From a virus (lineage: Duplodnaviria; Caudoviricetes), in IMG/VR virus record IMGVR_UViG_3300031626_000002, positions 1 to 59,879 of that record: 59,879 bases of DNA. One strand, written 5' to 3'. The notes under the pieces were generated by a model, which worked only from the letters and a program-made list of their open reading frames with translations, made no database searches and was not told where the DNA came from. The number at the start of each line of letters is the position of its first letter. Within the stretch, counting starts at the first letter, position 1. A program made the position numbers and the translations under genes. Of this stretch, positions 16,064-59,879 are shown one piece after another.

Positions 16064-16088
16064 ATCCTAGTCATGATATAAAACTGAC
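16064..16088 (+). promoter_or_regulatory. Small H-type pseudoknot motif PK5
   Basis: ATC-CTAGTCAT-GAT-ATAAAAC-TGAC. Confidence 0.55.
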
Positions 16089-16146
16089 CACATATAATTC
16101 ATAGGGCATAGCCCCAAGTTTGTTAGTTAGACCCACGGAGGGAGCT

Positions 16147-34815: not shown

Positions 34816-34836
34816 TTCTCTAAGTTCCTTATAGGG
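34816..34836 (+). promoter_or_regulatory. Putative phage RNAP promoter
   Basis: TTCTCTAAGTTCCTTATAGGG; upstream of the RNR, nozzle and ejection genes. Confidence 0.82.
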
Positions 34837-42970: not shown

Positions 42971-42971
42971 T

Positions 42972-45900
42972 ATGATCGATAAAACAGATCCAACTAATAG
43001 GGATACTGTACCTGCGATGCTAACACCTGGGGAATTTGTCCTCAACAAGGAAGCATCAACTATGTTTGCTCCTGTGATAGAGCAAATGAATAGCGCAGGT
43101 TTACAGCATCGTGCAATGAAAAACATGGGTGGTGGTATTCCAACTTATAACACAGGCGGTCTTGTTCCCTTCCTGAAAGAAGTGGAGGGCTATGGTCAAC
43201 CCCCAAATCATGACAAGTCATACCAAGACCAAGCTGGTGTGTGGACAATAGGGTATGGGCGAACTCGCAATGCTGATGGTAGTCTTATTAAACCGAATCA
43301 GACAAGTGATAAAAAGTCTGAAGAATCTTGGCTTAAAGTTAGGGCTCAAAAAGACCGTGACGCTACTGTAGAGTATGGTAAAAAACATGGCTATGATTGG
43401 AACGATAACCAGATTGATGCATTAGCATCTTTTCGTTTTAACATTGGAAACTTAGACCAACTAACTGATTTTGGTAAAAGGGACATGGCTACCATTACTG
43501 CAAAGATACCAGAGTACAATCAAGCTGGTGGAAAAGTAAGTGATGGTCTTATTAATAGGCGGCAAGCTGAGCTTAATCTTTTTTCAGGTGGTAGTGAACC
43601 TTCACAAGAAACCCCACAACCCACAACTCAAACAGCATCTGCAGAACCTGTACCAAGATTTTTTAGTGGTGGTGGTGCTGATGGTGAAGGCAGTTTTGGT
43701 AAGGTTGGTGATTTCTTTAGTGGGGTAACAACACCATCTGTAGCACCTATGGCTTCTGTACCTCCTCAAATGAGACCTAAAGATCTAGCTCCTCAAATGG
43801 CTGCTGGTTCTATAGATACTATGGCATCTTCACGCCCTCAAATGAGACCCAACACTCAAGCAGATCCTGTCGCTGTTGAACAAGCAATTATGCAAGCTAG
43901 TGTACCACAGGTACAAGCAGCACCCCCAGAACCAACAGACTTTGGTGAAGCCTTCAAAGACGCACGAGCTGACATGGGAGCGGGAGGTATCTTTAACTTT
44001 CGTGGTCGTGATTATAATACTAATTATGCTGAAGAGAAGGATATGGTAACTGCTAACATGGGTGGTTCTATTTATCTAAATACAGGTGGATTATCTATAG
44101 ATCAAATGGCTCGACGTAAGCTTCAGGAAGACGTTGACAACGCTTGGTTCAAACGTAATGAGCGTGATGCTCTTACTAAATTTGATCAAGCCAACCTCGC
44201 ACTTCAAGCTATGCCTCAAAGTTTTGCTGCTCCATCTCCAATGCAAACAGAGGGGGATCAACTACCTAGGGTACTTCCAGGCAGTGGCCCTCAACAGGAG
44301 CCTAGTATGGCTGATCAAGGTGGTCCTAATAGGGTTCCACCCATGAGTCCCCCAATGCCAGATGTTAATAGTGATGAATCATTACTGCAAGGTTCTTCTG
44401 GCAATGTTGATCAAGCATTTAAATTCAAACAACTACAATACAGTGTCCCAAAACCAGGACAAGGCTTAGGTCTTGAGACATTTGGTCCAGGTAATATCTT
44501 TAACAATGGTCAAACTATACCAGAGATCCGTGATCCAAGGGAACTTGGGGGTACTGAGGGGTATGGTCAGACTGGTGATGCTACTTCTCGTAGGGCTGCG
44601 GCTCAACAGAGGTTAATTGCTCTTCGTGAAAACCTAGTTACAGGGTCACCTGAACACATCAAGGTGTCTAACCTTATCACAGGGGCATTCACCCCATCTA
44701 TGACAAGCCTAGATGAATTGGTTGATTACAACATACCAGCTTCAATTATGGACTCTGATAGGATGATGGTTGGTAATGTACCTATGGGAGATGGTGTTCC
44801 CAATATGGTTGAAGATATAATAAAAAGTAGGATACCAAACCCCGCTGCTAACCTTGATGTTGGTCACCCAGATCGTGTGGCTGCTATTGAGGCTGGTACT
44901 CTTGAGCCAACTGATGCTGATTATGCATTTGATGAAGAGCAATATAGACTTTCTGAGGCTCTTAGGCAAAACAGAATAGATCAAGCAGTCGCTATTGAGA
45001 GTAGTAAAACAGATCGTCAAGGTACGGAAGATGGTTCTTTAAAGGACGAGGAACAAAGGCTTGCTAATGAGATAGCAGCTATGACTGGTCGTGTTCCACC
45101 CCTAAATTCTCCACCTGTCCAACAAACCGATATTGCAATGCCTATATCTGCAGACACAATGGCTGCTGCTGCTCTTGCAAGTGGGATACCATCTGCTAAG
45201 ACTAATCCTGAAGTTATTCTTCAAGTGGCTAATCAAAGACAGACTGCAGAAGATGCTATCGAACAAGCAAAAAGGGATCTTGCTACTGCTGAAGCTGGTA
45301 TTAGGAATGCTGCAACAGCTGAGCAAGTTTTGAAGTACGAGGAGATGGGTAGGCAAGCTAAGACAAATCTCACAACCTCTTCAGCTGACTTAGTAGAAGC
45401 GCAGGAACAACAAATCCAGATAGATGAAGTTGATGCTGCTGCAGAAGCTGACAAGTCAACCCTCATTAGGACAAGCCAAGCACAGGCTGATGCTGCACGG
45501 GAAGCAGCCTTGAGTTCTCTAGGGTTCTCCAAGATCCCTGAGAAGAAGGGACCTGGATCAACCAAGGGACCTATGATTAAGACGGGACCTAATGGTACTA
45601 TCTTAGATGCTAATGGTAAAGCCATTGTTAATCTTACACCACAGGAAGCAATCACCTCCGATGTAGCAGCGAAAGCTAAAGCAAAGGCTGATATAATAGC
45701 GGCTGAGGGTGGTGGTAAGAAGACACCTGAAGTATCCGGTGCTATGTCTATGCTTAAGGGTGTCTTCGGGGATCTCTTTGACAGTAAGGAACTAATCAGA
45801 GCTGCTGTTATGTATCTTGGTGGTCGTGCCACTGGTATGTCTGGTAATCAAGCTCTTGCCTTTGCTGGTAAGAACTACATTGCTAGGACTGATGCTAAGG

Positions 45901-46769
45901 AAGGTGCATATCAGAAGGTTGCTCTTGAAGGTAAGCATACTAAATCAAGCCTTGCAATCTTTAAGAAATCTATGGACTTTGGTGATCTTGTAACTAAGGG
46001 TCTTCCTGCAGTGCCTACTGGTGATTTTAAAACCATGTATGATAGAAAAACAGGTAGGGAAATTACTCTAACTGAAAAGAAAGTAGGTGATGGTAGTTAT
46101 TGGTTTGATGGTAATGAGCAAGTTGATGTGAGGGCACTTACAAATGATGGTAGGTTTGCCCCTAAGACAGCAGCTAATGTTGCCTACAAGAACACAATAA
46201 GGGGTAATGTAGAGTCTCTTGTTACATCACTAGATTCTTTAAATCCAAGTAAGATCCCCGATGCGAAGGCTGGTATTTCAGAACTGGGTATTGCAAAGGA
46301 AACAATTGGAAGGGAAGCTGTTACGTTCGCTATTGAGAATGGGATGGAACTAGAGCAGATGGAAGAGCTTGTAGAGAAAGCTTATAAAGAAGCACTAGTT
46401 GATGCTCGGTCTGGTAAGAAACCAACTAGGTTGAGTGATTATTTCTCAAGGGCTTGGGTAGAATCTAACACTACCGATGCACAAAACTTCTTCTTACCTG
46501 GTGAAACTAAGGATGGTAAACCGATCCCAGTTCCTGTAGCCAATGTTACAACTTTCTTACAGACTATTAAGAATGCTGCGGCTGCTAGTGGTAAGGAAGG
46601 GTTGGCTAATATGAGCGACACTCAAGTCTCATCTTGGCTAATGAGCACAGACTCTTACAAAGCTTGGCAAACAATGGACCCCGATCTGAAGAAAGAGTAC
46701 ATTAAAAATGGTGCAGCTAGTGGTCGAAGCGGGATGATGGAATACATTATATCCGGTATGGTATCTTAG
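42972..46769 (+). CDS. Internal virion protein with GH24 lysozyme domain
   Basis: Start MIDKT after AGGAG; DTVPAMLTPGEFV; EVEG...YQDQAGVWTIGYG...DALASFRFNIG...GLINRRQAE. Confidence 0.85.
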   Translation: MIDKTDPTNRDTVPAMLTPGEFVLNKEASTMFAPVIEQMNSAGLQHRAMKNMGGGIPTYNTGGLVPFLKEVEGYGQPPNHDKSYQDQAGVWTIGYGRTRNADGSLIKPNQTSDKKSEESWLKVRAQKDRDATVEYGKKHGYDWNDNQIDALASFRFNIGNLDQLTDFGKRDMATITAKIPEYNQAGGKVSDGLINRRQAELNLFSGGSEPSQETPQPTTQTASAEPVPRFFSGGGADGEGSFGKVGDFFSGVTTPSVAPMASVPPQMRPKDLAPQMAAGSIDTMASSRPQMRPNTQADPVAVEQAIMQASVPQVQAAPPEPTDFGEAFKDARADMGAGGIFNFRGRDYNTNYAEEKDMVTANMGGSIYLNTGGLSIDQMARRKLQEDVDNAWFKRNERDALTKFDQANLALQAMPQSFAAPSPMQTEGDQLPRVLPGSGPQQEPSMADQGGPNRVPPMSPPMPDVNSDESLLQGSSGNVDQAFKFKQLQYSVPKPGQGLGLETFGPGNIFNNGQTIPEIRDPRELGGTEGYGQTGDATSRRAAAQQRLIALRENLVTGSPEHIKVSNLITGAFTPSMTSLDELVDYNIPASIMDSDRMMVGNVPMGDGVPNMVEDIIKSRIPNPAANLDVGHPDRVAAIEAGTLEPTDADYAFDEEQYRLSEALRQNRIDQAVAIESSKTDRQGTEDGSLKDEEQRLANEIAAMTGRVPPLNSPPVQQTDIAMPISADTMAAAALASGIPSAKTNPEVILQVANQRQTAEDAIEQAKRDLATAEAGIRNAATAEQVLKYEEMGRQAKTNLTTSSADLVEAQEQQIQIDEVDAAAEADKSTLIRTSQAQADAAREAALSSLGFSKIPEKKGPGSTKGPMIKTGPNGTILDANGKAIVNLTPQEAITSDVAAKAKAKADIIAAEGGGKKTPEVSGAMSMLKGVFGDLFDSKELIRAAVMYLGGRATGMSGNQALAFAGKNYIARTDAKEGAYQKVALEGKHTKSSLAIFKKSMDFGDLVTKGLPAVPTGDFKTMYDRKTGREITLTEKKVGDGSYWFDGNEQVDVRALTNDGRFAPKTAANVAYKNTIRGNVESLVTSLDSLNPSKIPDAKAGISELGIAKETIGREAVTFAIENGMELEQMEELVEKAYKEALVDARSGKKPTRLSDYFSRAWVESNTTDAQNFFLPGETKDGKPIPVPVANVTTFLQTIKNAAAASGKEGLANMSDTQVSSWLMSTDSYKAWQTMDPDLKKEYIKNGAASGRSGMMEYIISGMVS

Positions 46770-46798: not shown

Positions 46799-49700
46799 AT
46801 GGGAATACTAGATGATATTAGTAACTTTCAGCCTAACACTTTAGCAGGTACTAATACTCACTTTATCGATGGTGATACATTAGATAACCCAGATGGCCCC
46901 AACTATCGTCTTCGTGGTTATGATGCTGCTGAGGTATCTAAGATTATAGGTGGTCAAGTTAAGGAAGGTACTGCTGGTGGTGGTGACACCACTGGCATTA
47001 TCTCCCGACTAGCTAATGAACAGGGGTTTACTAACATTAGACCTGTGTTCAACGCAGATGGTACCCCTATGATGGACACTGGCGGTAGTCGTCAGATGGT
47101 TGATCTTGTCAATGAGAATGGGGAAACCTTCTCAGGTAGGCTTATGAGTTCAGGTGCTATGGATTTAACAGAGTACTCAACAGACTCTGATAGAATCCAA
47201 AGGACAGCTGAGACATCTGCTAGGGAAAGGGCTATGTTCGAGGGTACTTACAAACCCTCTGCATTTGACAAGGCTGCACTGGACATTGAGTTGGCTGAGA
47301 GATCTGAAGGTGCTAAGTCTATGGGCTTTAAGCAAACCCTTGTAGATGAAAGAGAAAGAGCTTCTTACATTAGCTACTTCATGACTCAAGGTATGTCTAG
47401 GGATCAAGCTACAAACGAGATGAACAAGTATTTCAATCGTGATGTGGGCATCCGGAGATCAGGTGTCTCACTTGACAACAAATCTCTTAACCCTGTCAGC
47501 GACTCTTGGGAACAAGGGTGGATCAGTGTGGGTGAAAGTGCCTACGGTGTTGCTAACCTAGTGGGTTCCTCTACTGGTGCTGAGGGTCTCGAGAGATGGG
47601 GTGAGGATGGTGTACGTAGGCAGCAAGGTAAGCTGGCTGAGTATGGATACACAATTAACAACTATAAAGATGTTGATAGTATTGGGTCTGCCCTTGAGTA
47701 CCTTGGGAGTACAATGGCTCTGTCCCTACCTTACATGGCAATCACTGCTGGTTCTGCTATCGCTGGGACTGTAGCTGCTCCTGTCATAGGAGCTACTGCT
47801 GCTATCGCAGGTGCTGTAGCTATCCCCTCATTCATGTATGCAGGTCAAACCTGGAACGACATGGAAGGTGATAACGATAGTAAGTCTGCTACCATTGCTA
47901 TTGGTTCTGGTGTTGCTCAAGCTGTACTTGATCGCTTAGGTCTCAAAGGTATCGGTGGTATCGCTAAGAATCCAATACAAACTATTAGAGATGATATTCC
48001 AAAAGCACTTGCCAAGGCTCGTAACATAAGCCTGTCAGAAGCTAAGTTGATTGTTAAGCAGGAAGCAGACTTTGCCATTGGGCAGTTTGCAAATGAAGCA
48101 CAGAAGATTGCTAAGGCTCAACTCACAGCCAAACAGACTTCTATGAGAGCCTTGGGAAGTGTGGGTGTTGGCTCAGTATCTGAGGGACTAACTGAGGTTG
48201 GTCAGGAAGCTATTGGCTATCTTGCTGCTGTTCAAGGTTCGGATAAAGTATTTGACTACGAAGAGTTTCAAGAACGTTTAGCTAATGCTGCTGTTGCTGG
48301 CACTGCCTTGGGTGGTGCCTTTTCTATTCCTGGTACAGTTAAAGATCAGATAACTTGGATGGATGCAGCTGCTCGTTTCGGAGAACCCATACCTCAAGCA
48401 GACATTGAAAGATATGTAGAGGAAGAGAAGGCGGCTCACGGTGGTATTGTAAGAACTACACCCCAACTTTTAACAGATGTTCAGAAAGAGGTAGATGCCT
48501 CTGATGATCTTGGTTTCAACATCAATGAGAGAGAGGCTGAGCACAAGCAAACAACTGGTCAGAAAACATTTATGGAACGTGCATCTACGTCTGTAATGAA
48601 TGTGTCTAACCTTTGGCAAGCTGCCGTTACAAATGCAATTCCAAAAGCTACACTAGATAAGTCTAAGTCTGCTCGTGCATTGGCATCTATCTTAGGTGGT
48701 ACACTAACCCCTTTACATGGGGGTTCTGGTATCGAAGCTGCACAACACCACCTTGTCACTTACTACAAGAACCAAGTGCATGACCCAAAAGTTTTCTATA
48801 AGAACATGGGGCTGAGATCTTTAGCTGGTGTGTTTAAGGCTTCTGATAGGGCAAGGATAAGTGACTTAACTTACAAAGCCCTTAGGGCTGCTGTTGATAA
48901 GCGTGGTAACTTCAATAAGAATCTCGTACCAAAAGACACTCCTAACAGGCAGATGATTGTTGATTTAGGCAATCAGCTTATGGGTCTTGGTCAGGAGCTT
49001 CGTCAAAACCAACTAGATGCTGGTGCTGATTTGGGAGATATTAAAGCTTACCTTCTTAAGTACAAGTCAATTGATAAGACTGCTGTATCTAAGAACCCAG
49101 AGATGTTTACAAACCTATTGGTGTCTGAGTATAAGATCAGTCCTGCAGAAGCTTTGAGGATTACAGATGAGATCAGGGACAACCCAAACGTTTACGATCT
49201 AGACTCTGCAGATGCTATCATAAGTAATGTAGGATCTCTCAACCCACCATCGCACAAGAGTAGAAAGTTTGGTCTATCTCAGAATGAAAAGTTTGATCAG
49301 TTCTATGAAAAAGATATCTTCGCTAACGTTGCTAATGCAAGTAAGACTGCAGCTCGTTATGTAACTCAGATGAAGTATGTTGGTAAGGATGGGGAGATTG
49401 TATCTAAACTCTTGAACAACATGCAGGCTGAGGGTGTGTCCAATGAAGAGGTTAATCGTGTAGCTTCTGAGGTTAAGAATATCTTAGAGGCTGTGTCAGG
49501 TAACTACAACAGGCCGACTACTCAAGCTGGTAAGAAGCTTATGCGGTTCCAGAAGAATGTAATGTTCTGGATGACCCTCTCTGCACTACCACTTGCAACA
49601 TTCTCCTCATTACCTGAGATGGCTATGACACAGGGTGCTCTTACTCGTGATCAAATCTTTGGTAAGAATGGTAGTATTAAAAACATTGCACAAGAAGCAG

Positions 49701-50812
49701 TGTCTGGTTTACTACCCCAGCTTAGGAAGGTTGAGGCAAGCACTGAAGATGGCATACTCCGACAGAACACTGGGAGTGAAGGTCAGAAGTTGCTTAGGGA
49801 AACTGGTTTCTATGCTTGGGAAGTAGGTGCTGCAACAACCACAGGTGTCAGTGAGGTTTCAGACAGTCGTAAGAATGTTATGGAAGCTTTCTTTAGGGCT
49901 ATTGGTTTGACCCAATGGACTGACTATACTCGTGCTGTTCGTGCAAGTATGGCCTATGACTTCATATCTATTAACGCTAAGATAGTATTTCAAAGAGACT
50001 CAGGGTTAACACCTGATACTCGTGAGGCTCAAGAGGCAGAGCAAAAGCTGAGGAGCTTAGGGATACCTGTAGAACAATTCGTACCTCTCAATAGTATAAT
50101 TGAAAGGACTGGTCCTGAGGGTCTTAGAGATCCTAGGTCTATGGATCTCTGGAATCAAACAATGAAGGAAGCCACCTACAACTTTATCAACCAAGCAGTA
50201 GCCCTTCCAAGTGCAGCCAATCGTCCTTTGCTCTATCAGGATCCTAGGTTCGCTTTGTTCACACAGTTCCAAGGTTTTATCTCTACCTTTACAGCAAACC
50301 ATATACCTCGGATGTGGAATGATTACATTAAACGTGGTACTCCAGCAATGAAGTACAACACCTTTGTGCTCATGTCTACTATGATTGCCCTAGGGTTCTT
50401 CTCACAGGCAATGAAAGACGAGATCAAGTTTGATGATGATGATGATGAAGGTACACTGGGTAATCCATATCTGGATACACCTGAGTATGTTCGTCGTGGT
50501 GTCATGGCTTCTGGTTTGTTTGGTACAGGTGAGCGAGTTATTGATATGTTTGCACCTATCTATGGTCAACGCACTGATGGTCTTGGTGGTTGGTTATACA
50601 ATCAAGCCACAGGTGAAAGCCCCACAGTTGGTTACGTTGGTCGTCTTGGAGATGCAGCTTTGAATGTAGCTAAGGGTGACTTTGAACGTGCTGCGTATCA
50701 GGGTTTGAAATCAGCCCCTGGGATTGGTCCCTTTACAGACACAAACAAAAGCCTAGCTAGTCTTCTAACTGGTGGTGGTTGGAACTATAAAGACAACAAG
50801 GAGAATCAGTAA
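46799..50812 (+). CDS. Large ejection protein with N-terminal SNase-like domain
   Basis: IDGDTL...YRLRGYDAAE; hydrophobic Ala/Gly segment; C-terminal LFTQFQGF as in podophage DNA-injection proteins; no Cys. Confidence 0.75.
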   Translation: MGILDDISNFQPNTLAGTNTHFIDGDTLDNPDGPNYRLRGYDAAEVSKIIGGQVKEGTAGGGDTTGIISRLANEQGFTNIRPVFNADGTPMMDTGGSRQMVDLVNENGETFSGRLMSSGAMDLTEYSTDSDRIQRTAETSARERAMFEGTYKPSAFDKAALDIELAERSEGAKSMGFKQTLVDERERASYISYFMTQGMSRDQATNEMNKYFNRDVGIRRSGVSLDNKSLNPVSDSWEQGWISVGESAYGVANLVGSSTGAEGLERWGEDGVRRQQGKLAEYGYTINNYKDVDSIGSALEYLGSTMALSLPYMAITAGSAIAGTVAAPVIGATAAIAGAVAIPSFMYAGQTWNDMEGDNDSKSATIAIGSGVAQAVLDRLGLKGIGGIAKNPIQTIRDDIPKALAKARNISLSEAKLIVKQEADFAIGQFANEAQKIAKAQLTAKQTSMRALGSVGVGSVSEGLTEVGQEAIGYLAAVQGSDKVFDYEEFQERLANAAVAGTALGGAFSIPGTVKDQITWMDAAARFGEPIPQADIERYVEEEKAAHGGIVRTTPQLLTDVQKEVDASDDLGFNINEREAEHKQTTGQKTFMERASTSVMNVSNLWQAAVTNAIPKATLDKSKSARALASILGGTLTPLHGGSGIEAAQHHLVTYYKNQVHDPKVFYKNMGLRSLAGVFKASDRARISDLTYKALRAAVDKRGNFNKNLVPKDTPNRQMIVDLGNQLMGLGQELRQNQLDAGADLGDIKAYLLKYKSIDKTAVSKNPEMFTNLLVSEYKISPAEALRITDEIRDNPNVYDLDSADAIISNVGSLNPPSHKSRKFGLSQNEKFDQFYEKDIFANVANASKTAARYVTQMKYVGKDGEIVSKLLNNMQAEGVSNEEVNRVASEVKNILEAVSGNYNRPTTQAGKKLMRFQKNVMFWMTLSALPLATFSSLPEMAMTQGALTRDQIFGKNGSIKNIAQEAVSGLLPQLRKVEASTEDGILRQNTGSEGQKLLRETGFYAWEVGAATTTGVSEVSDSRKNVMEAFFRAIGLTQWTDYTRAVRASMAYDFISINAKIVFQRDSGLTPDTREAQEAEQKLRSLGIPVEQFVPLNSIIERTGPEGLRDPRSMDLWNQTMKEATYNFINQAVALPSAANRPLLYQDPRFALFTQFQGFISTFTANHIPRMWNDYIKRGTPAMKYNTFVLMSTMIALGFFSQAMKDEIKFDDDDDEGTLGNPYLDTPEYVRRGVMASGLFGTGERVIDMFAPIYGQRTDGLGGWLYNQATGESPTVGYVGRLGDAALNVAKGDFERAAYQGLKSAPGIGPFTDTNKSLASLLTGGGWNYKDNKENQ

Positions 50813-53800
50813 TGGCTATACCAGTGATTAAAGGGGGGAGTGCTGAGCTCCCCTCTCAGACTTTAGAAGATCGATTTGTTACAACTGAGCAGGTATCTCC
50901 ACAACAGGAAGCACCTGCACCACAATCAACAGGTATCCTACAGGACATTGCTAACACCACTCCGGAGCAGGTTGCAGCAATCACACAGGTGGATGCATCT
51001 GAGTTAACACCTGATTTAATCCTCCCAGAACAACAGGGAAATGATAACAGGTTCTTGGTACCTGACATGGCTACTCGTGCTCAGACAGACAACCAAAGGT
51101 ACAGTAGGGTCACACCTATTCAACTCCCAAGGGTAACTGTTGCAGCACAAACTGAGGCTGGTGGTAATCTTAGGTCTCGTGCAAAGACTCTTGTTCAGAA
51201 TGTAAACTCTGGTAATCTTGGGTTAAACCTTACAGCTCTTGGTACCCCAGCCTACGCATTAACCAAAGGTGAATCACCTGTCTCAGGTCCAGCACTTGCG
51301 GATGCTATCGCTGAATCTTCTGAAGGTAACATTGTAGCTGCCATTAGTAGGGCTAATGCAATTGTAGAATCTGAGGGTGGTATGAAGATACCTAACCCAA
51401 TGTACACACAGATTGCCTCTGCTATTATTGAAGATACTTTTGGTGGTAACTTGGACAACACCCTTGACCCTCTAGCGGAGGCAATGGGAGATCCATCTGT
51501 CCCTGTGGAAAGCCCAAACAAAACACTCACACACGCTGAGGGTAACGCACAGATAGGTAACAGGATACATCTTGAGTACCAGCGTAGGAATAGGCAGGCC
51601 ATGATAAGTCAGGGTGCTCCTGAGGCTGACCCTCAAGTTCAAGCATTGGCATCTCCAGATAAACTACCACGTAAGGAAGCGGAGACACTGGGGGCTGCGT
51701 TTAAGCAGTTGTGGGCAGACTCTAACCCAACACTGGTTACACGAGCCGTTGATCCAAAGACCCGTCAGATAGTTTATGGTCTAACTGCAGAAGGCGAAGC
51801 CGCTATTAAAGAGGGTGAGCTTGATCGTAAACAGATCTTCCCCCGTCAGATAGTACGCCCTCAGAAAGTACCTAACCAAATGGCTGGTACTGATGTTGGT
51901 AAGAACGTAGTTCGAGCAGTATCTGGTGGTAAGCCTGGTCAGAAGATGGGTCGGATAATCAACCAAGCTATCGATAACTTAGGTCAGGTTGGACATGTGG
52001 TTGATAAACAACGCATGAAGATACTGTACTCTACAGTCTTAGCTACATTAGTAACTGGTGATTATTCTACTTGGCAGGCTGAGATCAACAATGTTGGTCA
52101 AACTAGGATGGATAAATTCAATGCGGCTGCTAAGATGCAAGAACGTAAGCTTGCAAACAATCCAGAGATGCGTGAAGAAATCTACAATCCAGGTGAAAAT
52201 ATCAACAACTTGTTTGATAAACTAGCACAGGAAGTACAGTCACTAGCACAGGAACGCAATGGTATCAACTACCTTACCTATAATGTTCAGGGTTTCCAAG
52301 GGAGGTTGACACCTCAGCAATCCTACTTTAACCCAGTTACATCTAAGGCTGTTCGGTTTGCCACAAGATCACCTAACCCATCTATCATTAGACCTGGGAA
52401 CAGGCAAGAGAAGAACCTGCGTCAGATGTATGCCATGATCCTATTGTCTAAAGTCAAAGACTCGCAGGGTAATACAATTACAGATGCTGGTGATACCTTC
52501 TTACCTACCCAAAGAGAAGTGATGCTTAAGGCTAGGGAGTCTGAGCTATATGGTTATGGTAAGCGGCTTGCACAAGCACTAGAGATGACTGATGCGCAGT
52601 ATGAAGCTGTGTCTGAGGCGATTGCTAATGGTGTTCCCTTAGACTCTCCACAGTTCCCAAAGTTTAATCAACTCAGCCTTGATCCAAATAGTGATTATGA
52701 TAGCATGATTATTAAAATGATTAAGGACAAAAAGGAAGACGGTCCATTGCTAATGGATACGTTGATAGACTTTTCTAAGTACGTTGACTTCAAAAGGAAC
52801 TACCCAAATGACAAGCAGTTTATCAGTTATGTGAATGCTTACATGGATGGTAAAACTAATGGACCTGCAAGTCAGGGTATGCAGATGGGTGAGATACCAA
52901 CAGCTTTCTTAACTGGTGTTCTTAGAGCAAGAGGTAACAGGTCAACACTCTTAGATGATGGTGACATACGCGATAAGCTTATGGGATTAGCTAATCAGAG
53001 TATAGAAAGTGGGTGGGAGAACATCAGTGAGGATCTATTCCCACAACTGAACGATGTTGCTCGTGCTGTATTTAGTGACAGGGATCTAGCTAAGCTGACT
53101 ATCATGACCTATGGTTATGGTAAGGAGGTGGAAAGTTTTGTGGCTGATATTGAAGAAGTGTTGGAAGTTTTAAATGAAAAACTAATACAGGACTCTGAAA
53201 GTTCTTATGGCCCCAGTCTTTCTATCATAGACTCCACTATGTCACGTAGGGATTTAGCTAAGGTTCTCTTAGAGAAATACAAAGGATCTCTTGAAGGTGT
53301 GATGACTGCTGAATCAATAGAGGCTAGGTCTATTATGAGGGCTGCTGCTGCACTTCACGCTGCTATGAATGAGCCTTTCATCATCAAAGGTCCAACGGGC
53401 ATGGACATTCATATTGGTGGTGAATCCTCTACAGGTTATGATGCAGCATCTAGAAGTACCTATAAGAGTAGATCTCCTGAGACTGGTGAGATGGTTAAGA
53501 CAACTGTTGCGCACTATGAGACTGAGACTACGGCTGCTGCTACTCGTAATAGGACAAACCCAGATGGTACCATTGAAGGTACTCCTGGTGAGTTTGCTTA
53601 TGGTGGATCTGTTGTTGCCCCCATCCAAGCTGTTGATGCTGCCACTGTAGCAATGACTGCCTCTGGTAAGTCTTGGGACAGGGCAGGTAAGGCATCCAAT
53701 GGGAACCCATTCCTTTTAACTATCTACGATGCTTTTAAAGTAGATGCTAATGGTTATGATGTATTCCTAGAAGAAATTAACCTCAACTGGATGGATGCAA

Positions 53801-54312
53801 CCCTTGATTGGAGCTACCTAGAACAGGCACGTAACTCCCTGACTGAGGCTACTAAACGTTTTGAAGAGAAGATGAAAGGTAGGAAGCCTGATGACAAGCT
53901 CACAGATAATGAGAAGGTCTATATGGATTGGATGCTTAAGGTATCCCCTGCTGCCAGTGGTAATATGTACATGGCTAATCTCTGGGGACGCATGAGTAAA
54001 CTAACAGGTACTGCTGGGAAGGTCAGGACAGAAGAGCAACTTCAGGAAGATCGTGTTCGCATGTCTAGGGTAATGGCTGCGGAGATGAAGAAGGTGGGGT
54101 ATGATCCATACAACCCACCATCTGAGCCCACTGTCAATCAGCTCAAGACCTTCAAGGGTCTTCTTCGGAATGAGTTGAACCTACATTCTAGGTTGCCAGA
54201 TGTTATTAAAAGAACTAATAGCAACAAGGTAGCCCTTAGAAAAGAGCTGCTTATGAATGGTTACAAAACCGAAAGCGGTAGACGTATTCCACTGCAATAC
54301 TACGCACACTAA
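50812..54312 (+). CDS. Putative virion-encapsidated single-subunit RNA polymerase (N4 vRNAP-like)
   Basis: YNVQGFQGRL...FNPVTSKAVR; motif A MDGKTNGP; motif B RDLAKLTIMTYGYG; PIQAVDAA; motif C IYDAF; no Cys; last gene of the ejection cluster. Confidence 0.85.
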   Translation: MAIPVIKGGSAELPSQTLEDRFVTTEQVSPQQEAPAPQSTGILQDIANTTPEQVAAITQVDASELTPDLILPEQQGNDNRFLVPDMATRAQTDNQRYSRVTPIQLPRVTVAAQTEAGGNLRSRAKTLVQNVNSGNLGLNLTALGTPAYALTKGESPVSGPALADAIAESSEGNIVAAISRANAIVESEGGMKIPNPMYTQIASAIIEDTFGGNLDNTLDPLAEAMGDPSVPVESPNKTLTHAEGNAQIGNRIHLEYQRRNRQAMISQGAPEADPQVQALASPDKLPRKEAETLGAAFKQLWADSNPTLVTRAVDPKTRQIVYGLTAEGEAAIKEGELDRKQIFPRQIVRPQKVPNQMAGTDVGKNVVRAVSGGKPGQKMGRIINQAIDNLGQVGHVVDKQRMKILYSTVLATLVTGDYSTWQAEINNVGQTRMDKFNAAAKMQERKLANNPEMREEIYNPGENINNLFDKLAQEVQSLAQERNGINYLTYNVQGFQGRLTPQQSYFNPVTSKAVRFATRSPNPSIIRPGNRQEKNLRQMYAMILLSKVKDSQGNTITDAGDTFLPTQREVMLKARESELYGYGKRLAQALEMTDAQYEAVSEAIANGVPLDSPQFPKFNQLSLDPNSDYDSMIIKMIKDKKEDGPLLMDTLIDFSKYVDFKRNYPNDKQFISYVNAYMDGKTNGPASQGMQMGEIPTAFLTGVLRARGNRSTLLDDGDIRDKLMGLANQSIESGWENISEDLFPQLNDVARAVFSDRDLAKLTIMTYGYGKEVESFVADIEEVLEVLNEKLIQDSESSYGPSLSIIDSTMSRRDLAKVLLEKYKGSLEGVMTAESIEARSIMRAAAALHAAMNEPFIIKGPTGMDIHIGGESSTGYDAASRSTYKSRSPETGEMVKTTVAHYETETTAAATRNRTNPDGTIEGTPGEFAYGGSVVAPIQAVDAATVAMTASGKSWDRAGKASNGNPFLLTIYDAFKVDANGYDVFLEEINLNWMDATLDWSYLEQARNSLTEATKRFEEKMKGRKPDDKLTDNEKVYMDWMLKVSPAASGNMYMANLWGRMSKLTGTAGKVRTEEQLQEDRVRMSRVMAAEMKKVGYDPYNPPSEPTVNQLKTFKGLLRNELNLHSRLPDVIKRTNSNKVALRKELLMNGYKTESGRRIPLQYYAH

Positions 54313-54370
54313 AAAAATAAGGCCCCCAAGAGAACCATTACGGTTTTCCTGGGGGCCTTTTAATTTTATT
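54313..54370. terminator. Bidirectional intrinsic terminator between the two transcriptional arms
   Basis: A-run, AAGGCCCCCAAGAGAACC-atta-CGGTTTTCCTGGGGGCCTT, T-rich tail. Confidence 0.88.
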
Positions 54371-54656
54371 TAAGCATACCTTTCTTTGCAAGGAGCTCTC
54401 GGTACTCCTTCATCTGGTCTTGCTTACGCTGTCGTGCTTCTTTATCATTGATCACACCACCCTCTAGGTCTTCTGCAATACCAATGTCCATGACACGTGG
54501 CATAAGATCCCTTGTGTAAGCCAGCTCCAAGTCTAGAGATGTCTTTGTTAGTGGGTTGGTATTCCAATCAGAGATGAACTCATCGTCATCTACTTGAACA
54601 CCCCGTAGTGCTAAATGATTATATGATTTACGCGAAGAAGTAGTCACTGTTTTCAA
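54366..54656 (-). CDS. Hypothetical protein downstream of the RNAP
   Basis: TTG start after AAGGAG, overlapping the RNAP 3' end. Confidence 0.7.
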   Translation of the reverse strand: MKTVTTSSRKSYNHLALRGVQVDDDEFISDWNTNPLTKTSLDLELAYTRDLMPRVMDIGIAEDLEGGVINDKEARQRKQDQMKEYRELLAKKGMLK

Positions 54657-56922
54657 TCTCCTTTATATCTAAGCTGCCTAATGTAGGTTGTTCCACATCA
54701 TCCTCAGCATCTGTTATGAAGTTACGTATAACCTCAAAGTAATTATCGTAGTCGTACATGCGTATGAATATTTGTTTGGTTAAGTCGAGTAGTTTATCTA
54801 CATCACAGGCATGAGTACTGAAGCTATCATGCACAGCTGCAAAGGAACCATCCCACTCAGAGATAACCAAAGCCATGTGACTAGCATCCATAGAGTGTAT
54901 GTAGTTAGGTGACATGCCACATATGAAACCTCTCCTGTCTGGCATACGTGTAGGTACAAGTGCTACGTGTGTAACTTGACCTGTCTTATTACCATACCCT
55001 TTGATGCGTCCTCTAGCTTTTCTATCTTGCATGATCCATTTCTCATAGATCACATGGAACCCTGATGGTGTACTCCACTCAATCCTATCCTCACCTTTAC
55101 CATGTTTAAGACTTGTCGTGAACTCTTTAAGTTTAATCACAACATCGTTAAGCTCATAGAGATCTTCATCAGTCTTGAAGTTCTTCTTCATCAGAGTGTC
55201 ACGTATCTTAGACAGGTTACGATACTCAGTGTTAGCTTCGTACCCTTCTGAGTCTACTTTTACATGTGTACCTAATTGATACATCGCTAGGTTCTGTAGG
55301 TAACTCATAGTAGATAGTGGGCCTGGACATACCTTATCAATTGCTTTGATCAGCAGTTTAGACAATTTAGTACAGTCATCCTGTGTGATGTCATACTCTG
55401 TGTGGTAGTCCTCTGACTTACAATCAAAGAACATGTTCTCAGCAATCTTCTTAGAGCCTGCTGAGTATGCCCTAGTCATAGAGCCACGCTTGGATATCCC
55501 TTTACGTATACTCTTCATAGGCATACTAGACAATATACCATTAAGCCTATCATCTTTACACAGATCAATCATCTCCTTAGCTGTCTGCACATAGAAGTCT
55601 TTCTGTATCTCTGAGGGTATTAGACCAACCAACTCACCAGTTTGTTCGTCCTTAGAGATTGCTCCTAGGTGTTGCCAACCATTGTTACTCCCATCAATAG
55701 GGATTGGTAGGCTAGTCATGTGGATACGATTGTCCCTGTAAGCACAGTCAAATTCATACCACTCAACACAGGCAGCAAGGAAGGATACTTTCTTCTCAGC
55801 TTGACCAGAGAATTGTGAGTTCTTACCAGCCTGTATGATCTCATTCATGTACTCATTGGTCCAGATGATACGATCCTCTAGGGTCATCTTGTCAACAGAG
55901 ATGTTGTCTAACCCTTCACCCTCAAGGTGTCCTTTGTAATCAGATGTACACCAATCAGGTATCTCATCGATGTTGTAAGACATGTTGAAGACAGACGCTG
56001 TGTGTATAGCTAACCACTGTAACCCACTCTCAGTCATAGGCTTTGAGTGTTGAAACTTAAACAAGCCCCTAGCTAGATCAGATCCCTGGAAGTTCATGAA
56101 GCTCTCACAGTAGTAGAACCTACCACGATAGTCTACATCCAGGTACTGATAGAAAGCCTCTAGCTCTGATAGCTTACGTGCTTTCTCTGATATGAATGCC
56201 CACTCAACCATCTTACTTCTACGCTTGAGTTCTTTAGCATCATTGTCCTTAATAGGATCAGTAGATAGGAACAACTCTTTGTTCTCAATCATTGCATTGT
56301 AGACTGGTTTGTTTATCTTCCAAGCAGTCTGCTGCAGTTTGTTAAGGGCTTGTACCCAAGGTGCATAGGGGTCTATTGGATCACCCTCTACCCTACCTTT
56401 GATCACTGGCCTGTGTACCCCATTGATCTTCTGTATCATACCAGATATATCTTTGGGTCGTATGATACTGGTAGAGGCTAAGGGGAAACTCCCACCTCTC
56501 TCAGGTATCACACCTAACTCATACCATCTATGTGATGCAGACACCACATGACAGCTGTTACGGGTCTTAGCATAGGACAAGTCGATAAACCCTAGGTTGT
56601 ATAGGGCTTCTACGAACAGGTCTCCTATGGACACTACAGAGCCCCAGGGAAGGGGCTCTCTATCTAGTTCTTTACCTACACTCTGACCTATCTTACTAGA
56701 TGCATTGGTGAGTGTGGTTGTACCAGCTGGGCTTGAGCTGGTATCCTTAGTGAATTGCATTTGAAGTATAGAGATACTCTTAACAACGTACCCTTCCATA
56801 CGTTCACTATAGTTTCCAGACAATCTCATCAAGAGCCCAGCAAGGTGGGGTCTTCGACGTGCAGGACTTACACCATCTACCCTCTTGACAAGGTAATCAA
56901 CTATCTCTTGGAGTGCTGACAT
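54628..56922 (-). CDS. T7/T3-type single-subunit RNA polymerase
   Basis: DYRGRFY, motif A IDGSNNGWQH, motif B RKGISKRGSMTRAY, PNYIHSMDASH, motif C VHDSF, C-terminal YFFA. Confidence 0.97.
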   Translation of the reverse strand: MSALQEIVDYLVKRVDGVSPARRRPHLAGLLMRLSGNYSERMEGYVVKSISILQMQFTKDTSSSPAGTTTLTNASSKIGQSVGKELDREPLPWGSVVSIGDLFVEALYNLGFIDLSYAKTRNSCHVVSASHRWYELGVIPERGGSFPLASTSIIRPKDISGMIQKINGVHRPVIKGRVEGDPIDPYAPWVQALNKLQQTAWKINKPVYNAMIENKELFLSTDPIKDNDAKELKRRSKMVEWAFISEKARKLSELEAFYQYLDVDYRGRFYYCESFMNFQGSDLARGLFKFQHSKPMTESGLQWLAIHTASVFNMSYNIDEIPDWCTSDYKGHLEGEGLDNISVDKMTLEDRIIWTNEYMNEIIQAGKNSQFSGQAEKKVSFLAACVEWYEFDCAYRDNRIHMTSLPIPIDGSNNGWQHLGAISKDEQTGELVGLIPSEIQKDFYVQTAKEMIDLCKDDRLNGILSSMPMKSIRKGISKRGSMTRAYSAGSKKIAENMFFDCKSEDYHTEYDITQDDCTKLSKLLIKAIDKVCPGPLSTMSYLQNLAMYQLGTHVKVDSEGYEANTEYRNLSKIRDTLMKKNFKTDEDLYELNDVVIKLKEFTTSLKHGKGEDRIEWSTPSGFHVIYEKWIMQDRKARGRIKGYGNKTGQVTHVALVPTRMPDRRGFICGMSPNYIHSMDASHMALVISEWDGSFAAVHDSFSTHACDVDKLLDLTKQIFIRMYDYDNYFEVIRNFITDAEDDVEQPTLGSLDIKEIENSDYFFA

Positions 56923-56930
56923 GTATTCTC

Positions 56931-58550
56931 CTATGTAGCTATGTAATCAAAACCAACCTCTTTATTCTGAAGTCGGGTAGTCTGTGCATCATATGTTGCA
57001 GCACCAGCATCACCTGTCTTACCTGTGAACCTAGACTTAAGCACCCTGAATTGAACAGTGTTACGTTCGTATTCATCGGCTGCTGTTAGGTTCCTAGAGA
57101 ATGCAACGATGTCAAAGGAGATCTGTTTGATAGAACCAGAACCCTTGATGTCATCGATGGATGCAATGTTACCATCCTCGAATGCTTTACCACCTTGTGC
57201 TTTACGAAGGTGAGAGATCAAGCCTAGCCAGATGTTGTGTCGCTTGACGATTTTGAGGAGGTCGGACATGAACTTGTCGATGGCTTCGTTACCTGATAGA
57301 CCGTCACTTCCTTCTGATACAGCGATTGTGATGTGGTCGAGGACCAGATATTTACAACCCATGAGGGCCATGTATTCGATCTTATCAATGAGGCTGTCAT
57401 CTCCAACTGATCCTTGGTGGTCGAGGAGGACGAGTCTTTCATCTCCAAACACTTGTTCAAAGCCCTGTCTAAGTTCATCTTCAGCCGGAGGTGTGTCTTC
57501 ATTAAGCGACTTCTTGAGTACCATGCCAATGAACTTCTCTGCCGTGTCTCCAACGCTTTCTTCCAGACTGATAAGCCCCACCCGATCTTCTGTTTTGTGG
57601 AGAAGATCCAGGATAATCTCTTTGATAATAGTAGACTTACCACTGCCAGTTCCAGAAGTGAATAGAGTAATCTCACCATGCCTAATCCCCTTTAATTTAC
57701 TATTTAAACCACTCAAACAATCAGGGTAGGGTACACACTCTACGTTCTGTCGTTGAATGAATTGATCCCAGATAGGTTTACCTGTAACGATACCTGAGGG
57801 GTTCCAACTCTGTGCATTCCACACACACTCTAGCAAAGTCTTCCAACCATGCTTGAGTAATGTAGCATTAGCGTCATTCTCTGGTAGCTTTGCGACTTTA
57901 GCCTTACCTGGTTTAATCATTTTACCAAGGAAGTCAGACATCTTCTTACCAGCTTCATCCTGATCCATCATAATTACGACAGTCTTGAAGGAGTTTATCC
58001 AATCCCTTTGAGCAAGAGCACAAGAGGTAGCAGATGAAGAAGGTACAGCAACCACAGAATAGGTTCTTCCGTACTTTTCTTTGTACGCTTGCGCGACACT
58101 GAGGGCATCGACTTCACCTTCACAGATGACCAACGTAAATCCAGATGTTGATTGTTGTTGTCCGAATAGTTCGACATTTTTAAAGTCTCCATGAGTACGA
58201 AACTCTTTTGGGAGCTTACGCTCTTTGTATGCAGATAGTTCTCCATTGATAGTGTAAGGGTAGAAGTGTGATTGAGGTTTACCATTAATATCTACAGACA
58301 TTTTGACATTGTAATGATCAATCACATCCTGAGAGATCCCACGACTAGACATTGGATAGCTTCTGTATGTACTAATCTCATCGATAATAGACGAGTTCAC
58401 AAGGAAGTCGTCTTGTTCTATCAGTTCCATTGGTTCTCTTTCATTTATAAATATGGTTGTGCCACATGAAAAGCAGTGGCTTCTTGGGTTGTCATCGTTA
58501 TACACATGGTTAGCATCAGAGCTTCCACATTTTTCACAATTAGTTTTCAC
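56931..58550 (-). CDS. Primase-helicase (T7 gp4-like)
   Basis: Zn finger, TOPRIM ICEGEVDAL / MDQDEAG, Walker A SGTGSGKST, LDHIT, KGSGSIKQ, LKSRFTG. Confidence 0.96.
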   Translation of the reverse strand: MKTNCEKCGSSDANHVYNDDNPRSHCFSCGTTIFINEREPMELIEQDDFLVNSSIIDEISTYRSYPMSSRGISQDVIDHYNVKMSVDINGKPQSHFYPYTINGELSAYKERKLPKEFRTHGDFKNVELFGQQQSTSGFTLVICEGEVDALSVAQAYKEKYGRTYSVVAVPSSSATSCALAQRDWINSFKTVVIMMDQDEAGKKMSDFLGKMIKPGKAKVAKLPENDANATLLKHGWKTLLECVWNAQSWNPSGIVTGKPIWDQFIQRQNVECVPYPDCLSGLNSKLKGIRHGEITLFTSGTGSGKSTIIKEIILDLLHKTEDRVGLISLEESVGDTAEKFIGMVLKKSLNEDTPPAEDELRQGFEQVFGDERLVLLDHQGSVGDDSLIDKIEYMALMGCKYLVLDHITIAVSEGSDGLSGNEAIDKFMSDLLKIVKRHNIWLGLISHLRKAQGGKAFEDGNIASIDDIKGSGSIKQISFDIVAFSRNLTAADEYERNTVQFRVLKSRFTGKTGDAGAATYDAQTTRLQNKEVGFDYIAT

Positions 58551-58580
58551 CAGAAATCCCTTTCGGTTTTTATATCACGA

Positions 58581-58979
58581 TTACGATTCTTTTTCTGTCG
58601 AGTCTTTGAATGCTTCGAATCCCACTTCAAGTTCTTTTGCTTTTGCAACTCGAACCCAGAGGTATTCTCTTCCTCGTTTAACTCTGTCTCTTTGAAGGAT
58701 GATTCCTTGTACCGTTTTATCATTGAACTCCTCGAATATACTTTGATAGGTATCAAGTAAAGGTTTGATTATGTTATCTAAATCAGAGGCTTTATTAGAG
58801 AGACCAGCATATACAATGAAGTGGACAGGGCTATCTTTAAAAGCCCATGTCTCACCCATTAGCATAACTGCCATCTCCTCTTGGAACCTCTTGTAATCAG
58901 CTGTCTTGTAGGTTGTCCTGCCTTTCCGAACAAACATCCTGTTTGCTGATAGTGGTTTCATCTGGAATAGGTTTTCCAT
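58581..58979 (-). CDS. RusA-like resolvase (variant copy)
   Basis: Variant of 854..1252. Confidence 0.8.
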   Translation of the reverse strand: MENLFQMKPLSANRMFVRKGRTTYKTADYKRFQEEMAVMLMGETWAFKDSPVHFIVYAGLSNKASDLDNIIKPLLDTYQSIFEEFNDKTVQGIILQRDRVKRGREYLWVRVAKAKELEVGFEAFKDSTEKES

Positions 58980-59250
58980 TGCGCCTCTCTGCTGTTCTAA
59001 TAGCATGACAGTTATGGCACACCACTTCTGTTTTAAATACCTCATTAAGTATATCACCGATATCTTTATCACAAGAGATCATTCGAGATACGTTGTGAAG
59101 TTTCTCATACTTAGGTAGATGGTCGAACCCTAGAGCATCTGGGTGTTTATCATAACCACAATCAGTACACCCTATATCAGTCTTCAGTATCCCTATGAAC
59201 TGACGCTTGCTTTTTCGACTTATACTCTTCAATTTGTTTCTTAATATCAT
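58897..59250 (-). CDS. HNH-type endonuclease (variant copy)
   Basis: Variant of 1170..1523. Confidence 0.75.
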   Translation of the reverse strand: MILRNKLKSISRKSKRQFIGILKTDIGCTDCGYDKHPDALGFDHLPKYEKLHNVSRMISCDKDIGDILNEVFKTEVVCHNCHAIRTAERRNGKPIPDETTISKQDVCSERQDNLQDS

Positions 59251-59879
59251 CTAGCTCTTCCCAAGATGTTAACATTGTTAATAGACGCTTGGAAGTGTCC
59301 GGATTACCGGACCTGTTTGTTCTCCAAGCAGCTCGCACCCTATTCCACCTGCGGTGCATAGGAACTCCATGTAGTATCTTCTCTGCTTTCTTAGGTCCAA
59401 CTCCTTTAATTCCAGGGATATTATCAGACCTATCCCCAGTAAGGCATTGAAGCATAAGCTTAAGATTAGCAGTGTCTTCATCAACCTCTGTGATTTCTTT
59501 CTTAACAAAGTTGTAATGTGTTCCAGGAATCTGGAGAAGATCTTTGTCAATTCCAACTACTGTATACTCCTGATCAGCAGATCTACACTCAGCAGCCCAG
59601 ATGGCAACAAGATCATCTGCTTCCATATCATCTGCCTCAACAGCAGAATACTTCTCAACCATGTACTTATGCCCATAGTTTAAGGCTTCTTTAACACTAG
59701 GCTCTATCTCCTTTCGGGTTCCTTTGTAGGGAGGGTAGATATCCTTTCGGAAATTACCCCTCCCCTTAATTGCTACGAGGAAACTATCAGACCCACAGTT
59801 ACGTTGGATCTCTCTCATAGTGTTGTCAATTCCCACACGTATCTCTTTCTGTTTGGTTGTTACACAAGCCATCCGAAAG
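59177..59879 (-). CDS. 5'-3' exonuclease (variant copy, 5' end cut by the window edge)
   Basis: Variant of 1450..2199. Confidence 0.9.
   Translation of the reverse strand, partial: FRMACVTTKQKEIRVGIDNTMREIQRNCGSDSFLVAIKGRGNFRKDIYPPYKGTRKEIEPSVKEALNYGHKYMVEKYSAVEADDMEADDLVAIWAAECRSADQEYTVVGIDKDLLQIPGTHYNFVKKEITEVDEDTANLKLMLQCLTGDRSDNIPGIKGVGPKKAEKILHGVPMHRRWNRVRAAWRTNRSGNPDTSKRLLTMLTSWEELDDIKKQIEEYKSKKQASVHRDTED

Follow-up and report, generated by a model that had tools for sequence, protein, structure and literature searches.

How is transcription started in a phage that carries two single-subunit RNA polymerases (RNAPs), one of them encoded at the end of its operon of virion proteins? This question is raised by IMGVR_UViG_3300031626_000002, a virus record of IMG/VR (Duplodnaviria; Caudoviricetes) analysed here as a single window that comprises the whole record, i.e., 59,879 nucleotides, 100% complete according to CheckV. 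A plus-strand and a minus-strand block of genes converge at 54.3 kb of the window, where the last large gene of the first encodes P0001, a protein of 1166 amino acids (aa), and that of the second encodes P0002, a T7-type RNAP of 764 aa. A preliminary description had proposed that P0001 is a stand-alone virion RNAP (vRNAP) resembling that of phage N4, and that P0002 is a late enzyme. Both open reading frames (ORFs) were recovered as placed there, and re-reading of the translation located all the motifs listed for P0001 at the positions given (Table 1). The reading favored here, with a probability of roughly 60%, is that P0001 is an active RNAP of a new divergent family, which would be packaged and ejected as a starter enzyme before P0002 takes over.

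Predicted Fold and Catalytic Motifs of P0001

The AlphaFold2 model of P0001, computed from an alignment of 121 rows, has a mean pLDDT (predicted local distance difference test) of 83.7 and a pTM (predicted template modelling score) of 0.84, and its low-confidence parts are limited to residues 1-77, 94-116, and 215-236. Foldseek comparison of this model with the PDB yielded 73 matches (E<=0.001). The leading ones (E 4.5e-15 to 1e-12) have a probability of 1.00, with the yeast mitochondrial RNAP (mtRNAP; 8atv_A, 4.5e-15), T7 RNAP (8dh0_B, 9.2e-15), and human POLRMT at the head of the list. After re-alignment with VIA, all 50 matches listed are single-subunit RNAPs, with Z scores of 14.8-28.3, and they cover residues ~70-1166. 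The best of them, T7 RNAP, is matched end to end (Z 28.3, 544 aligned residues, root-mean-square deviation (rmsd) 5.0, residues 74-1164 of the model on 31-883 of the chain), followed by yeast mtRNAP (Z 25.2) and the N4 mini-vRNAP (Z 24.1, 752 aligned residues, rmsd 7.6), while full N4 gp50 gives Z 15.7. By its predicted fold, P0001 is thus no nearer to N4 than to T7. Identity to the structural matches is about 11-12% with both programs. In BFVD, only T7-type RNAPs and segments of N4-like vRNAPs were matched, at 10-13% identity, and none of the P0001 family itself; in the ESM Atlas, PF00940 is assigned to the closest clusters with a name (scores of 0.95 and 0.94) beyond the unnamed family of P0001. 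The right-hand, single-subunit RNAP fold that the preliminary description expected from structure prediction and Foldseek was therefore recovered.

The motifs tell the same story across the family, whose alignment comprises 121 members at 41-98% identity to P0001. Invariant columns include G497 and R498 of the T/DxxGR-type motif, D679, G680, K681, and G684 of motif A, K761, M765, T766, Y769, G770, and K771 at motif B, D942 within PIQAVDAA, and D973, K976, and D978 at motif C; the conservation of key residues among homologues, which had been named as a test of the polymerase assignment, is hence observed in all 121 sequences. The spacing of motif B, R-x3-K-x3-M-T-x2-Y-G, is identical in P0001 and T7 RNAP. 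Furthermore, R498, D679, K761, Y769, and D973 line up with the catalytic residues of T7 and N4, R425/D537/K631/Y639/D812 and R424/D559/K670/D951, respectively, whose sequence contexts were checked. In the model, D679 lies at the end of a strand (675-680), motif B is helical (757-768), and D973 is found at a hairpin turn (968-978), which, in secondary structure, is the arrangement needed by the palm and the O-helix of a polymerase. P0001 is almost certainly a single-subunit RNAP, and its sequence family is new and highly divergent.

A Sequence Family Without Matches in Reference Libraries

Sequence searches place P0001 outside all the families examined. It has no Pfam match at E<=10, PF00940 included, in a run where the N4 mini-vRNAP used as a control matched four vRNAP families; nothing was found in PHROGs or NCBIfam, no PDB sequence was matched by phmmer or by profile, and tblastn against 50,697 phage records was likewise without a match. 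Nevertheless, the family is large: among 7998 candidates scored from a collection of 5.8 billion proteins, 249 are homologous to P0001 at E<=0.001, and the 120 of these that were listed have no Pfam domain and are named at most "hypothetical protein." Similarly, among proteins clustered at 50% identity, 396 representatives match P0001 with E<=0.001, and 224 of them with E<=1e-30. Members are mostly 1100-1300 aa long. When the P0001 family was compared by hhalign with a profile of 18 T7-type RNAPs, T7 included, 578 collinear columns were aligned (E 0.0021, probability 13%), with T7 R425 falling on P0001 R498 and T7 D537 on D679. The comparison with the N4 mini-vRNAP was mis-registered (probability 1.2%), and that with P0002 alone had a probability of 0.2% and yet set motif A on motif A.

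Several homologues are longer than P0001. In some, extra sequence (~160 aa in P0039) is inserted downstream of motif B, at a site that falls between residues 789 and 798 of P0001, and others are extended by about 400 C-terminal residues; among the long forms, P0039 and P0069 have about 1280-1300 aa, and P0173 and P0204 have 1463-1537 aa. These extra segments have no Pfam match, except for a weak, sub-threshold one to Ntox11 in the C-terminal part of P0069 and P0089. An intein was considered for the ~160-aa insert and set aside, as no intein family was matched and splicing motifs were not seen by eye. At the other end, residues 1 to ~120/130 of P0001 are variable and of low complexity, with many P, Q, A, and E residues, and the model is largely of low confidence there. 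They nonetheless contain conserved patches, ELPTG near residues 20-25 and ERQxIPxLxER near 85-100, which may be a packaging or ejection signal.

Comparison With N4, T7, and Other Packaged Polymerases

The comparison with N4 was prompted by the preliminary description, and the facts it used are correct: gp50 has no cysteine in 3500 residues, and motif A reads DGVTNGP in the N4 record. P0001 resembles this vRNAP, and more particularly its mini-vRNAP (residues 998-2103), in its single-subunit fold, its DGxTNGP motif A, and the absence of cysteine, and in both cases the genome has a T7-type RNAP besides. The differences are also clear. N4 gp50 is a 3500-aa protein with large N- and C-terminal domains, whereas P0001 stands alone with 1166 aa; the mini-vRNAP matches PF21894, PF21769, PF21867, and PF21624 (E 3.5e-98 to 3.1e-22), and P0001 matches none of them; and RNAP II of N4 comes from two genes (gp15 and gp16), in contrast to the one intact 764-aa chain found here. 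As a result, the idea of a stand-alone N4-like vRNAP stands as far as the RNAP fold, the motifs, the lack of cysteine, and the position at the end of the ejection operon are concerned, but P0001 does not belong to the N4 vRNAP sequence families. A split form of gp50, with the 1337-aa and 1298-aa virion proteins encoded upstream of P0001 as its N- or C-terminal domains, was also considered; BLASTP found no match.

T7 RNAP is the best structural match of P0001, which differs from it in being about 280 residues longer, in lacking cysteine (T7 RNAP has 12) and any PF00940 match, and in being encoded in the virion module instead of the early region.

Virion-delivered RNAPs are otherwise known from crAss-like phages, where the packaged enzyme (gp66 of phi14:2) starts early transcription without that of the host, from phiKZ-like phages and, besides these two types, from N4-like phages, in the form of the 3500-aa giant. 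For phiKZ-like jumbo phages, a packaged phage RNAP that starts early transcription without the host enzyme is described in PMC4666361. The crAss-like and phiKZ-like virion RNAPs are of the two-barrel or multisubunit type, with a fold unrelated to the right-hand one of P0001, so that only the strategy is alike. In the StenR_269 paper, a vRNAP is proposed from size, helices, and lack of cysteine only. Within the parts of the literature available, no stand-alone single-subunit virion RNAP is reported.

The Cultured Relative CRP-7

Roseobacter phage CRP-7 (MK613349, 58,106 bp) shares the layout of the window, and its capsid and portal proteins are 54% identical to those encoded there. Its RNAP gp30, together with two small genes, converges on gp33 (1235 aa), gp34, and gp35, all of them annotated as "hypothetical." The position of gp33 is that of P0001, i.e., behind two proteins of >1200 aa and converging on the T7-like gp30. 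The two sequences are 20% identical over 281 residues (BLASTP E 0.004), with motifs B and C coinciding; hhalign of the P0001 family with gp33 alone (E 0.14) or with the gp33 family (E 0.13) was not significant. In the 22 members of the gp33 family, R479, D678, K762, Y774-G775-K776, D949, and H978-D979 are invariant, and motif A of gp33 is DARQSNAG, unlike the DGKTNGP of P0001. P0272, a family member 55% identical to gp33, was modelled with a pLDDT of 74.2, and its model has a single-subunit RNAP fold (Foldseek 4.2e-10; VIA Z 19.4 with yeast mtRNAP, 18.9 with T7, and 16.2 with N4). Cysteine is absent from 21 of the 22 members, and gp33, like P0001, has no match to PF21894, PF21769, PF21867, or PF21624. 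The N-termini of this family start with GLPTAG. In the accessible text of the CRP-7 paper, ORF30 alone is named as an RNAP, and no second RNAP is reported for CRP-7-type phages in the literature available, although the CRP-7 supplement may hold further annotations.

Linkage of P0001 to the Virion Module

Gene context suggests a link of P0001 to the particle. It is the last gene of a late operon, where it follows those of a 1298-aa protein with a lysozyme domain and of a 1337-aa protein of the phrog_6958 family, and its ATG overlaps the stop codon of the latter gene (TAATG). In Pseudomonas phage tf and Vibrio VPp1-like phages, relatives of the 1337-aa protein have been annotated as belonging to the particle. 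The placement of P0001 is also that of the N4 vRNAP gene, last on the late strand and converging on the end of the early/middle strand. According to published work (PMC4819975), podoviruses have internal virion proteins with domains that are bound for the cytoplasm, the N4 vRNAP being one of them, and the third, gp16-like ejection protein of N4-like phages is identified as the vRNAP in the Pa223 preprint.

Amino acid composition agrees with this context. The contrast in cysteine that the preliminary description had noticed between the two polymerases was confirmed by counting (0 in 1166 residues of P0001, 11 in 764 of P0002), and it extends to their relatives: cysteine is absent from 119 of 121 P0001 homologues, whereas each of 18 T7-type RNAPs has 6-14. 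Within the window, virion proteins have 0-1 cysteine, and cysteine makes up 1.4-2.2% of the enzymes.

Another line of evidence comes from comparing the 40 loci where all four genes are well covered. P0002 is at least 85% identical to that of the window in 18 of these, in which identity spans 38-97% for P0001 and 56-97% for the 1337-aa protein. In seven loci, P0002 and the primase-helicase are at least 95% identical, but identity falls to at most 46% for P0001 and to 56-61% for the 1337-aa protein. P0001 thus follows the virion module, and the drop in identity sets a recombination boundary between the two polymerase genes. This pattern indicates that the whole virion/ejection module was recently exchanged between otherwise near-identical phages, with a break between both RNAP genes. 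Loci L017-L019, L021-L023, and L027 have a replication module 95-98% identical to that of the window and an ejection module 44-61% identical. On this indirect evidence, a role for P0001 in the virion is likely, with a confidence similar to, or marginally above, that of the overall reading.

P0002 and Its Pairing With P0001

That P0002 is an intact T7-type RNAP, as first described, was borne out by matches to PF00940 (E 7.6e-55, 186.9 bits) and phrog_414 (E 3e-101), and by the preservation of the catalytic columns, D537, K631, Y639, H811, and D812 being invariant in the alignment of 18 T7-type RNAPs. Among phage proteins, CRP-7 gp30 resembles it most closely, at 35.6% identity. The two polymerase genes form a conserved pair: in IMG/VR, 76 distinct loci were found to contain a P0001 homologue, at 21-97% identity, and a T7-type RNAP is encoded just downstream, on the opposite strand, in all 76. 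The primase-helicase comes next in 75 of them, the exception being truncated by the end of the contig. Upstream of the P0001 homologue, the 1337-aa protein is encoded in 60 of the 76 loci; the remaining 16 are on contigs that stop inside the gene for this homologue or immediately before it.

A Single Class of T7-Like Promoters

The intergenic regions contain a T7-like promoter motif, TCTAAGTTCCTTATAGRG, in five copies with <=3 mismatches, versus 0.19 expected. All five are intergenic and face downstream genes, one of them heading the minus-strand early/replication block and the other four lying on the plus strand (Table 1). The motif ends in TATAG, and so do phi1.1A and phi1.1B, which are annotated as T7 promoters and in which the G is +1. 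Four complete relatives, whose P0002 is 86-97% identical, each have five copies in the same 4+1 layout (none in the reversed control), and a relative with P0002 at 56% identity has no copy. In two of the four, P0001 is only 44% identical and the promoter is unchanged; this class of promoters is therefore most likely read by P0002. Consequently, the label of late enzyme given to P0002 in the preliminary description was too narrow, since the promoters also head the early/replication block that includes its own gene, and P0002 is probably not only a late enzyme.

This arrangement has a corollary. P0002 is encoded at the distal end of its block, and the sole promoter recognisable for that block is T7-like, i.e., needs a phage-type enzyme. 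Sigma-70-like sites are also rarer in positions 1-17000 (30) than in shuffled sequences (45.5 +/- 6.1), although host promoters may be of another type. This creates a bootstrapping problem, which an injected polymerase would solve. The intergenic scans for a promoter class specific to P0001 gave only the one T7-like class, together with short TCTCTCAG arrays and three hairpins, and the leader, when compared with that of two relatives, contains no element that varies along with P0001. P0001 may use the same promoters, the hairpins, or DNA ends as its template.

The three hairpins (6234-6258, 10423-10447, and 11323-11346) are nearly identical, with the sequence AATCCGACC-ACGGG-GGTCGGATT on the minus strand, each followed by TTTAAAAAG, and every one of them is intergenic within the minus block. 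Because both stem and loop sequences are conserved, they are more than generic terminators and could be terminators for a phage RNAP, processing sites, or promoters. They may be N4-like hairpin promoters, but they resemble terminators or processing sites equally.

Sequencing data from 24 runs were also considered, all in the form of contigs, which show neither strand nor the ends of molecules or transcripts. Contigs of an RNA-library run (at least 99% identity) cover 11500-13120 and 15412-16500. The stretch at 15412 starts 14 nt past the predicted start at 15398, which is a weak hint only, given contigs without strand or ends. No contig of the RNA-library run X15 lies on 13121-15411, a DNA-run contig spans 12381-15236, and no conclusion was drawn from the gap.

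A Starter Polymerase and Its Alternatives

Putting these elements together, P0001 would be made late, from the last gene of the ejection-protein operon, and would enter the capsid along with the other large proteins of the virion interior. Ejected with the DNA, it would synthesize the first transcripts of the early/replication block, perhaps also helping DNA intake. As this block ends in the P0002 gene, P0002 would then carry out most of the transcription, from the five T7-like promoters and over both the early/replication and the structural blocks. Packaging, ejection, catalysis, the assignment of enzymes to promoters, and independence from host RNAP are what we infer in this scheme, according to which the phage may be able to start and run its own transcription.

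Several points weigh against it. The sequence links of P0001 to known RNAPs are weak (hhalign probabilities of 0.2-13%). The terminal domains of N4 gp50 are held to serve injection and encapsidation, and P0001 is without such N- and C-terminal domains of ~1000 aa; BLASTP of the large virion proteins of the window against gp50 revealed no similarity. That the promoter tracks P0002 also points to P0001 being left without a known target, and no promoter specific to P0001 was found by a pairwise scan of all intergenic windows or by enumeration of TATAG-type cores. Lastly, the early block may have promoters for the host enzyme.

As an alternative, P0001 may be an active RNAP that is not packaged, i.e., a cytoplasmic enzyme made late, with its own class of promoters for very late genes or for replication priming, while the host RNAP starts early genes. 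Such a start is known in phiKMV-like phages, which have their RNAP gene at the end of the early/middle region. The missing N4-like terminal domains would then need no explanation, and neither would the failure to find a fused longer form among proteins of 2042-5000 aa (weak evidence), and promoters of the host may have escaped the sigma-70 scan. This explanation is nevertheless unlikely. It offers no obvious cause for the avoidance of cysteine in 119 of 121 homologues when the T7-type neighbours keep 6-14, its cytoplasmic enzyme would be translationally coupled to a virion protein gene and would recombine along with the virion module, and the second repeated class of promoters that it calls for was not found.

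Less probable still is that P0001 is ejected mainly as a motor or clamp that pulls or holds the incoming DNA, its RNA products playing no part in gene expression. In T7 and N4, transcription is known to drive genome entry, and both the location of the gene in the ejection cluster and the want of a P0001-specific promoter would fit such a function. On the other hand, the strict conservation of the catalytic and nucleoside triphosphate-selecting residues R498, D679, K761, Y769, and D973 is what genuine RNA synthesis would lead one to expect, some polymerase is required for the early block before P0002 exists, and motor and transcription roles are mutually compatible. Finally, it is very improbable that P0001 is an ordinary internal virion protein whose motifs and RNAP-like model arose by chance or as a modelling artefact, as could be argued from its lack of matches in Pfam, PHROGs, NCBIfam, and PDB sequences and from hhalign scores that are not significant by probability, since the model is confident and all 50 VIA matches listed are single-subunit RNAPs, the very distant gp33-type family gave the same fold when modelled independently, the four motifs occur in order and are invariant over 121 sequences, and the language-model neighbours bear PF00940.

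Implications for CRP-7-Type Phages

What appears new is a stand-alone, N4-style candidate virion RNAP that represents a new single-subunit lineage and is encoded beside an intact T7-type RNAP in a group of marine podoviruses. A wider proposal can be made tentatively, at slightly less than even odds, namely that CRP-7-type marine podophages use a third, unnamed lineage of single-subunit RNAPs as a stand-alone, packaged, and injected starter which, with the T7-type enzyme, makes them independent of host RNAP from the first minute on. This group is abundant, with 396 protein clusters at 50% identity in addition to a cultured member.

If this were true, the N4 strategy would be neither unique to Schitoviridae nor tied to a giant fusion protein, and N4 gp50 would be a fusion of a free RNAP with ejection-protein domains. 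The packaging and ejection of an RNAP of ordinary size (about 1150 aa) would also bear on the unfolding and refolding of ejection proteins. Furthermore, P0001 would represent a deep new branch of the T7/mitochondrial/N4 polymerase family, of value both to studies of how that family evolved and to the search for new transcription enzymes, and would explain how transcription starts in a common group of ocean phages whose only promoter class seen needs a phage enzyme. With both CRP-7 and its Roseobacter host (Rhodobacteraceae FZCC0042) in culture, the idea of a packaged RNAP is open to direct testing.

Gene Map and Other Features of the Window

The minus-strand early/replication block begins near 13.0 kb with small ORFs, followed by the genes for a gp2.5-like single-stranded DNA-binding protein, MazG, thymidylate synthase, a family A DNA polymerase (2189-4027), an exonuclease, and a RusA-like protein. 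It continues across the record ends with the primase-helicase (56931-58550) and P0002. The plus-strand block opens at 13609 with the large terminase, then includes genes for the portal, scaffold, and major capsid proteins, tail fibres, and ribonucleotide reductase (RNR), and closes with the three very large proteins of 1298, 1337, and 1166 aa (P0001). Capsid and portal proteins are of the LUZ24/phiEco32/CRP-7 type, not of that of Schitoviridae. The GC-rich hairpin spacer between the converging blocks is probably a two-way terminator.

Table 1. Position of the genes, P0001 motifs, and predicted signals discussed in the text, with polymerase motifs aligned to those of T7 RNAP and the N4 vRNAP.
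Feature	Position	Strand	Remarks
Putative promoter copy	6195-6212	+	Predicted start near 6210; before plus-strand ORF 6285-6677
Putative promoter copy TCTAAGTTCCTTATAGGG	13157-13174	-	Predicted +1 near 13159; heads early/replication block
Putative promoter copy	13567-13584	+	Predicted start near 13582; 25 nt before large terminase gene
Putative promoter copy	15383-15400	+	Predicted start near 15398; before portal operon
Putative promoter copy	34819-34836	+	Predicted start near 34834; before RNR and tail/ejection genes, P0001 included
RNR gene	34894-36648	+	Mid structural block, behind its own promoter copy; CRP-7 RNR genes at same place
1298-aa internal virion/ejection-type protein	42873-46769	+	N-terminal phage lysozyme domain PF00959, aa 114-233; 1 Cys
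1337-aa virion protein	46799-50812	+	Cys-free; phrog_6958 ("virion structural protein")
P0001, candidate virion RNAP, 1166 aa	50812-54312	+	Cys-free; predicted RNAP fold ~70-1166
T/DxxGR-type motif GFQGR	52291-52305 (aa 494-498)	+	T7 YNMDWRGRVY; N4 vRNAP YNMTRVGRMQ; P0001 YNVQGFQGRL
Motif A DGKTNGP	52846-52866 (aa 679-685)	+	T7 FDGSCSGIQH; N4 vRNAP ADGVTNGPIN; P0001 MDGKTNGPAS
Motif B RDLAKLTIMTYGYG	53080-53121 (aa 757-770)	+	T7 RSVTKRSVMTLAYGS; N4 vRNAP RGIAKNPLTITIYGS; P0001 RDLAKLTIMTYGYGK
PIQAVDAA	53620 (aa 937)	+	Contains D942
Motif C IYDAF	53722-53736 (aa 971-975)	+	T7 LIHDSF; N4 vRNAP KIFDGM; P0001 TIYDAF; D973 between strands 968-971 and 974-978 in model
GC-rich hairpin spacer, 53 bp, AAGGCCCCCA...TGGGGGCCTT	54313-54365		T-runs on both strands; read from sequence
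96-aa ORF	54366-54656	-	Behind T7-type RNAP gene; no family match
P0002, T7-type RNAP, 764 aa	54628-56922	-	11 Cys; last large gene of early/replication block

The first 2152 bases of the record (1-2152) repeat the last 2152 (57728-59879) with 94.8% identity. The record therefore represents a mixed population assembled in circular or concatemeric form, its unit being ~57.7 kb, and its ends point to the assembly of two strains. Owing to the duplication, the genes of the primase-helicase, the RusA-like protein, and the exonuclease are present twice in the record.

The 641-bp gap between the diverging blocks (12968-13608) is dense in short repeats, with CTGAGAGA/TCTCTCAG arrays, CCCACAG-type repeats, and two 22-bp copies (13046-13067 and 13084-13105), and the number of TCTCTCAG units varies between relatives. 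This region may be a concatemer junction, a packaging site, or an origin.

Within the minus-strand replication block, the plus-strand ORF 6285-6677, which has its own T7-like promoter (6195-6212), matches the small terminase subunit weakly (phrog_74, E 1.7e-4). The same block includes 789 bp without a convincing minus-strand ORF (9660-10448), where two small plus-strand ORFs (9948-10151 and 10158-10361), several small hairpins, and an inverted repeat (10243-10264/10363-10384) are found.

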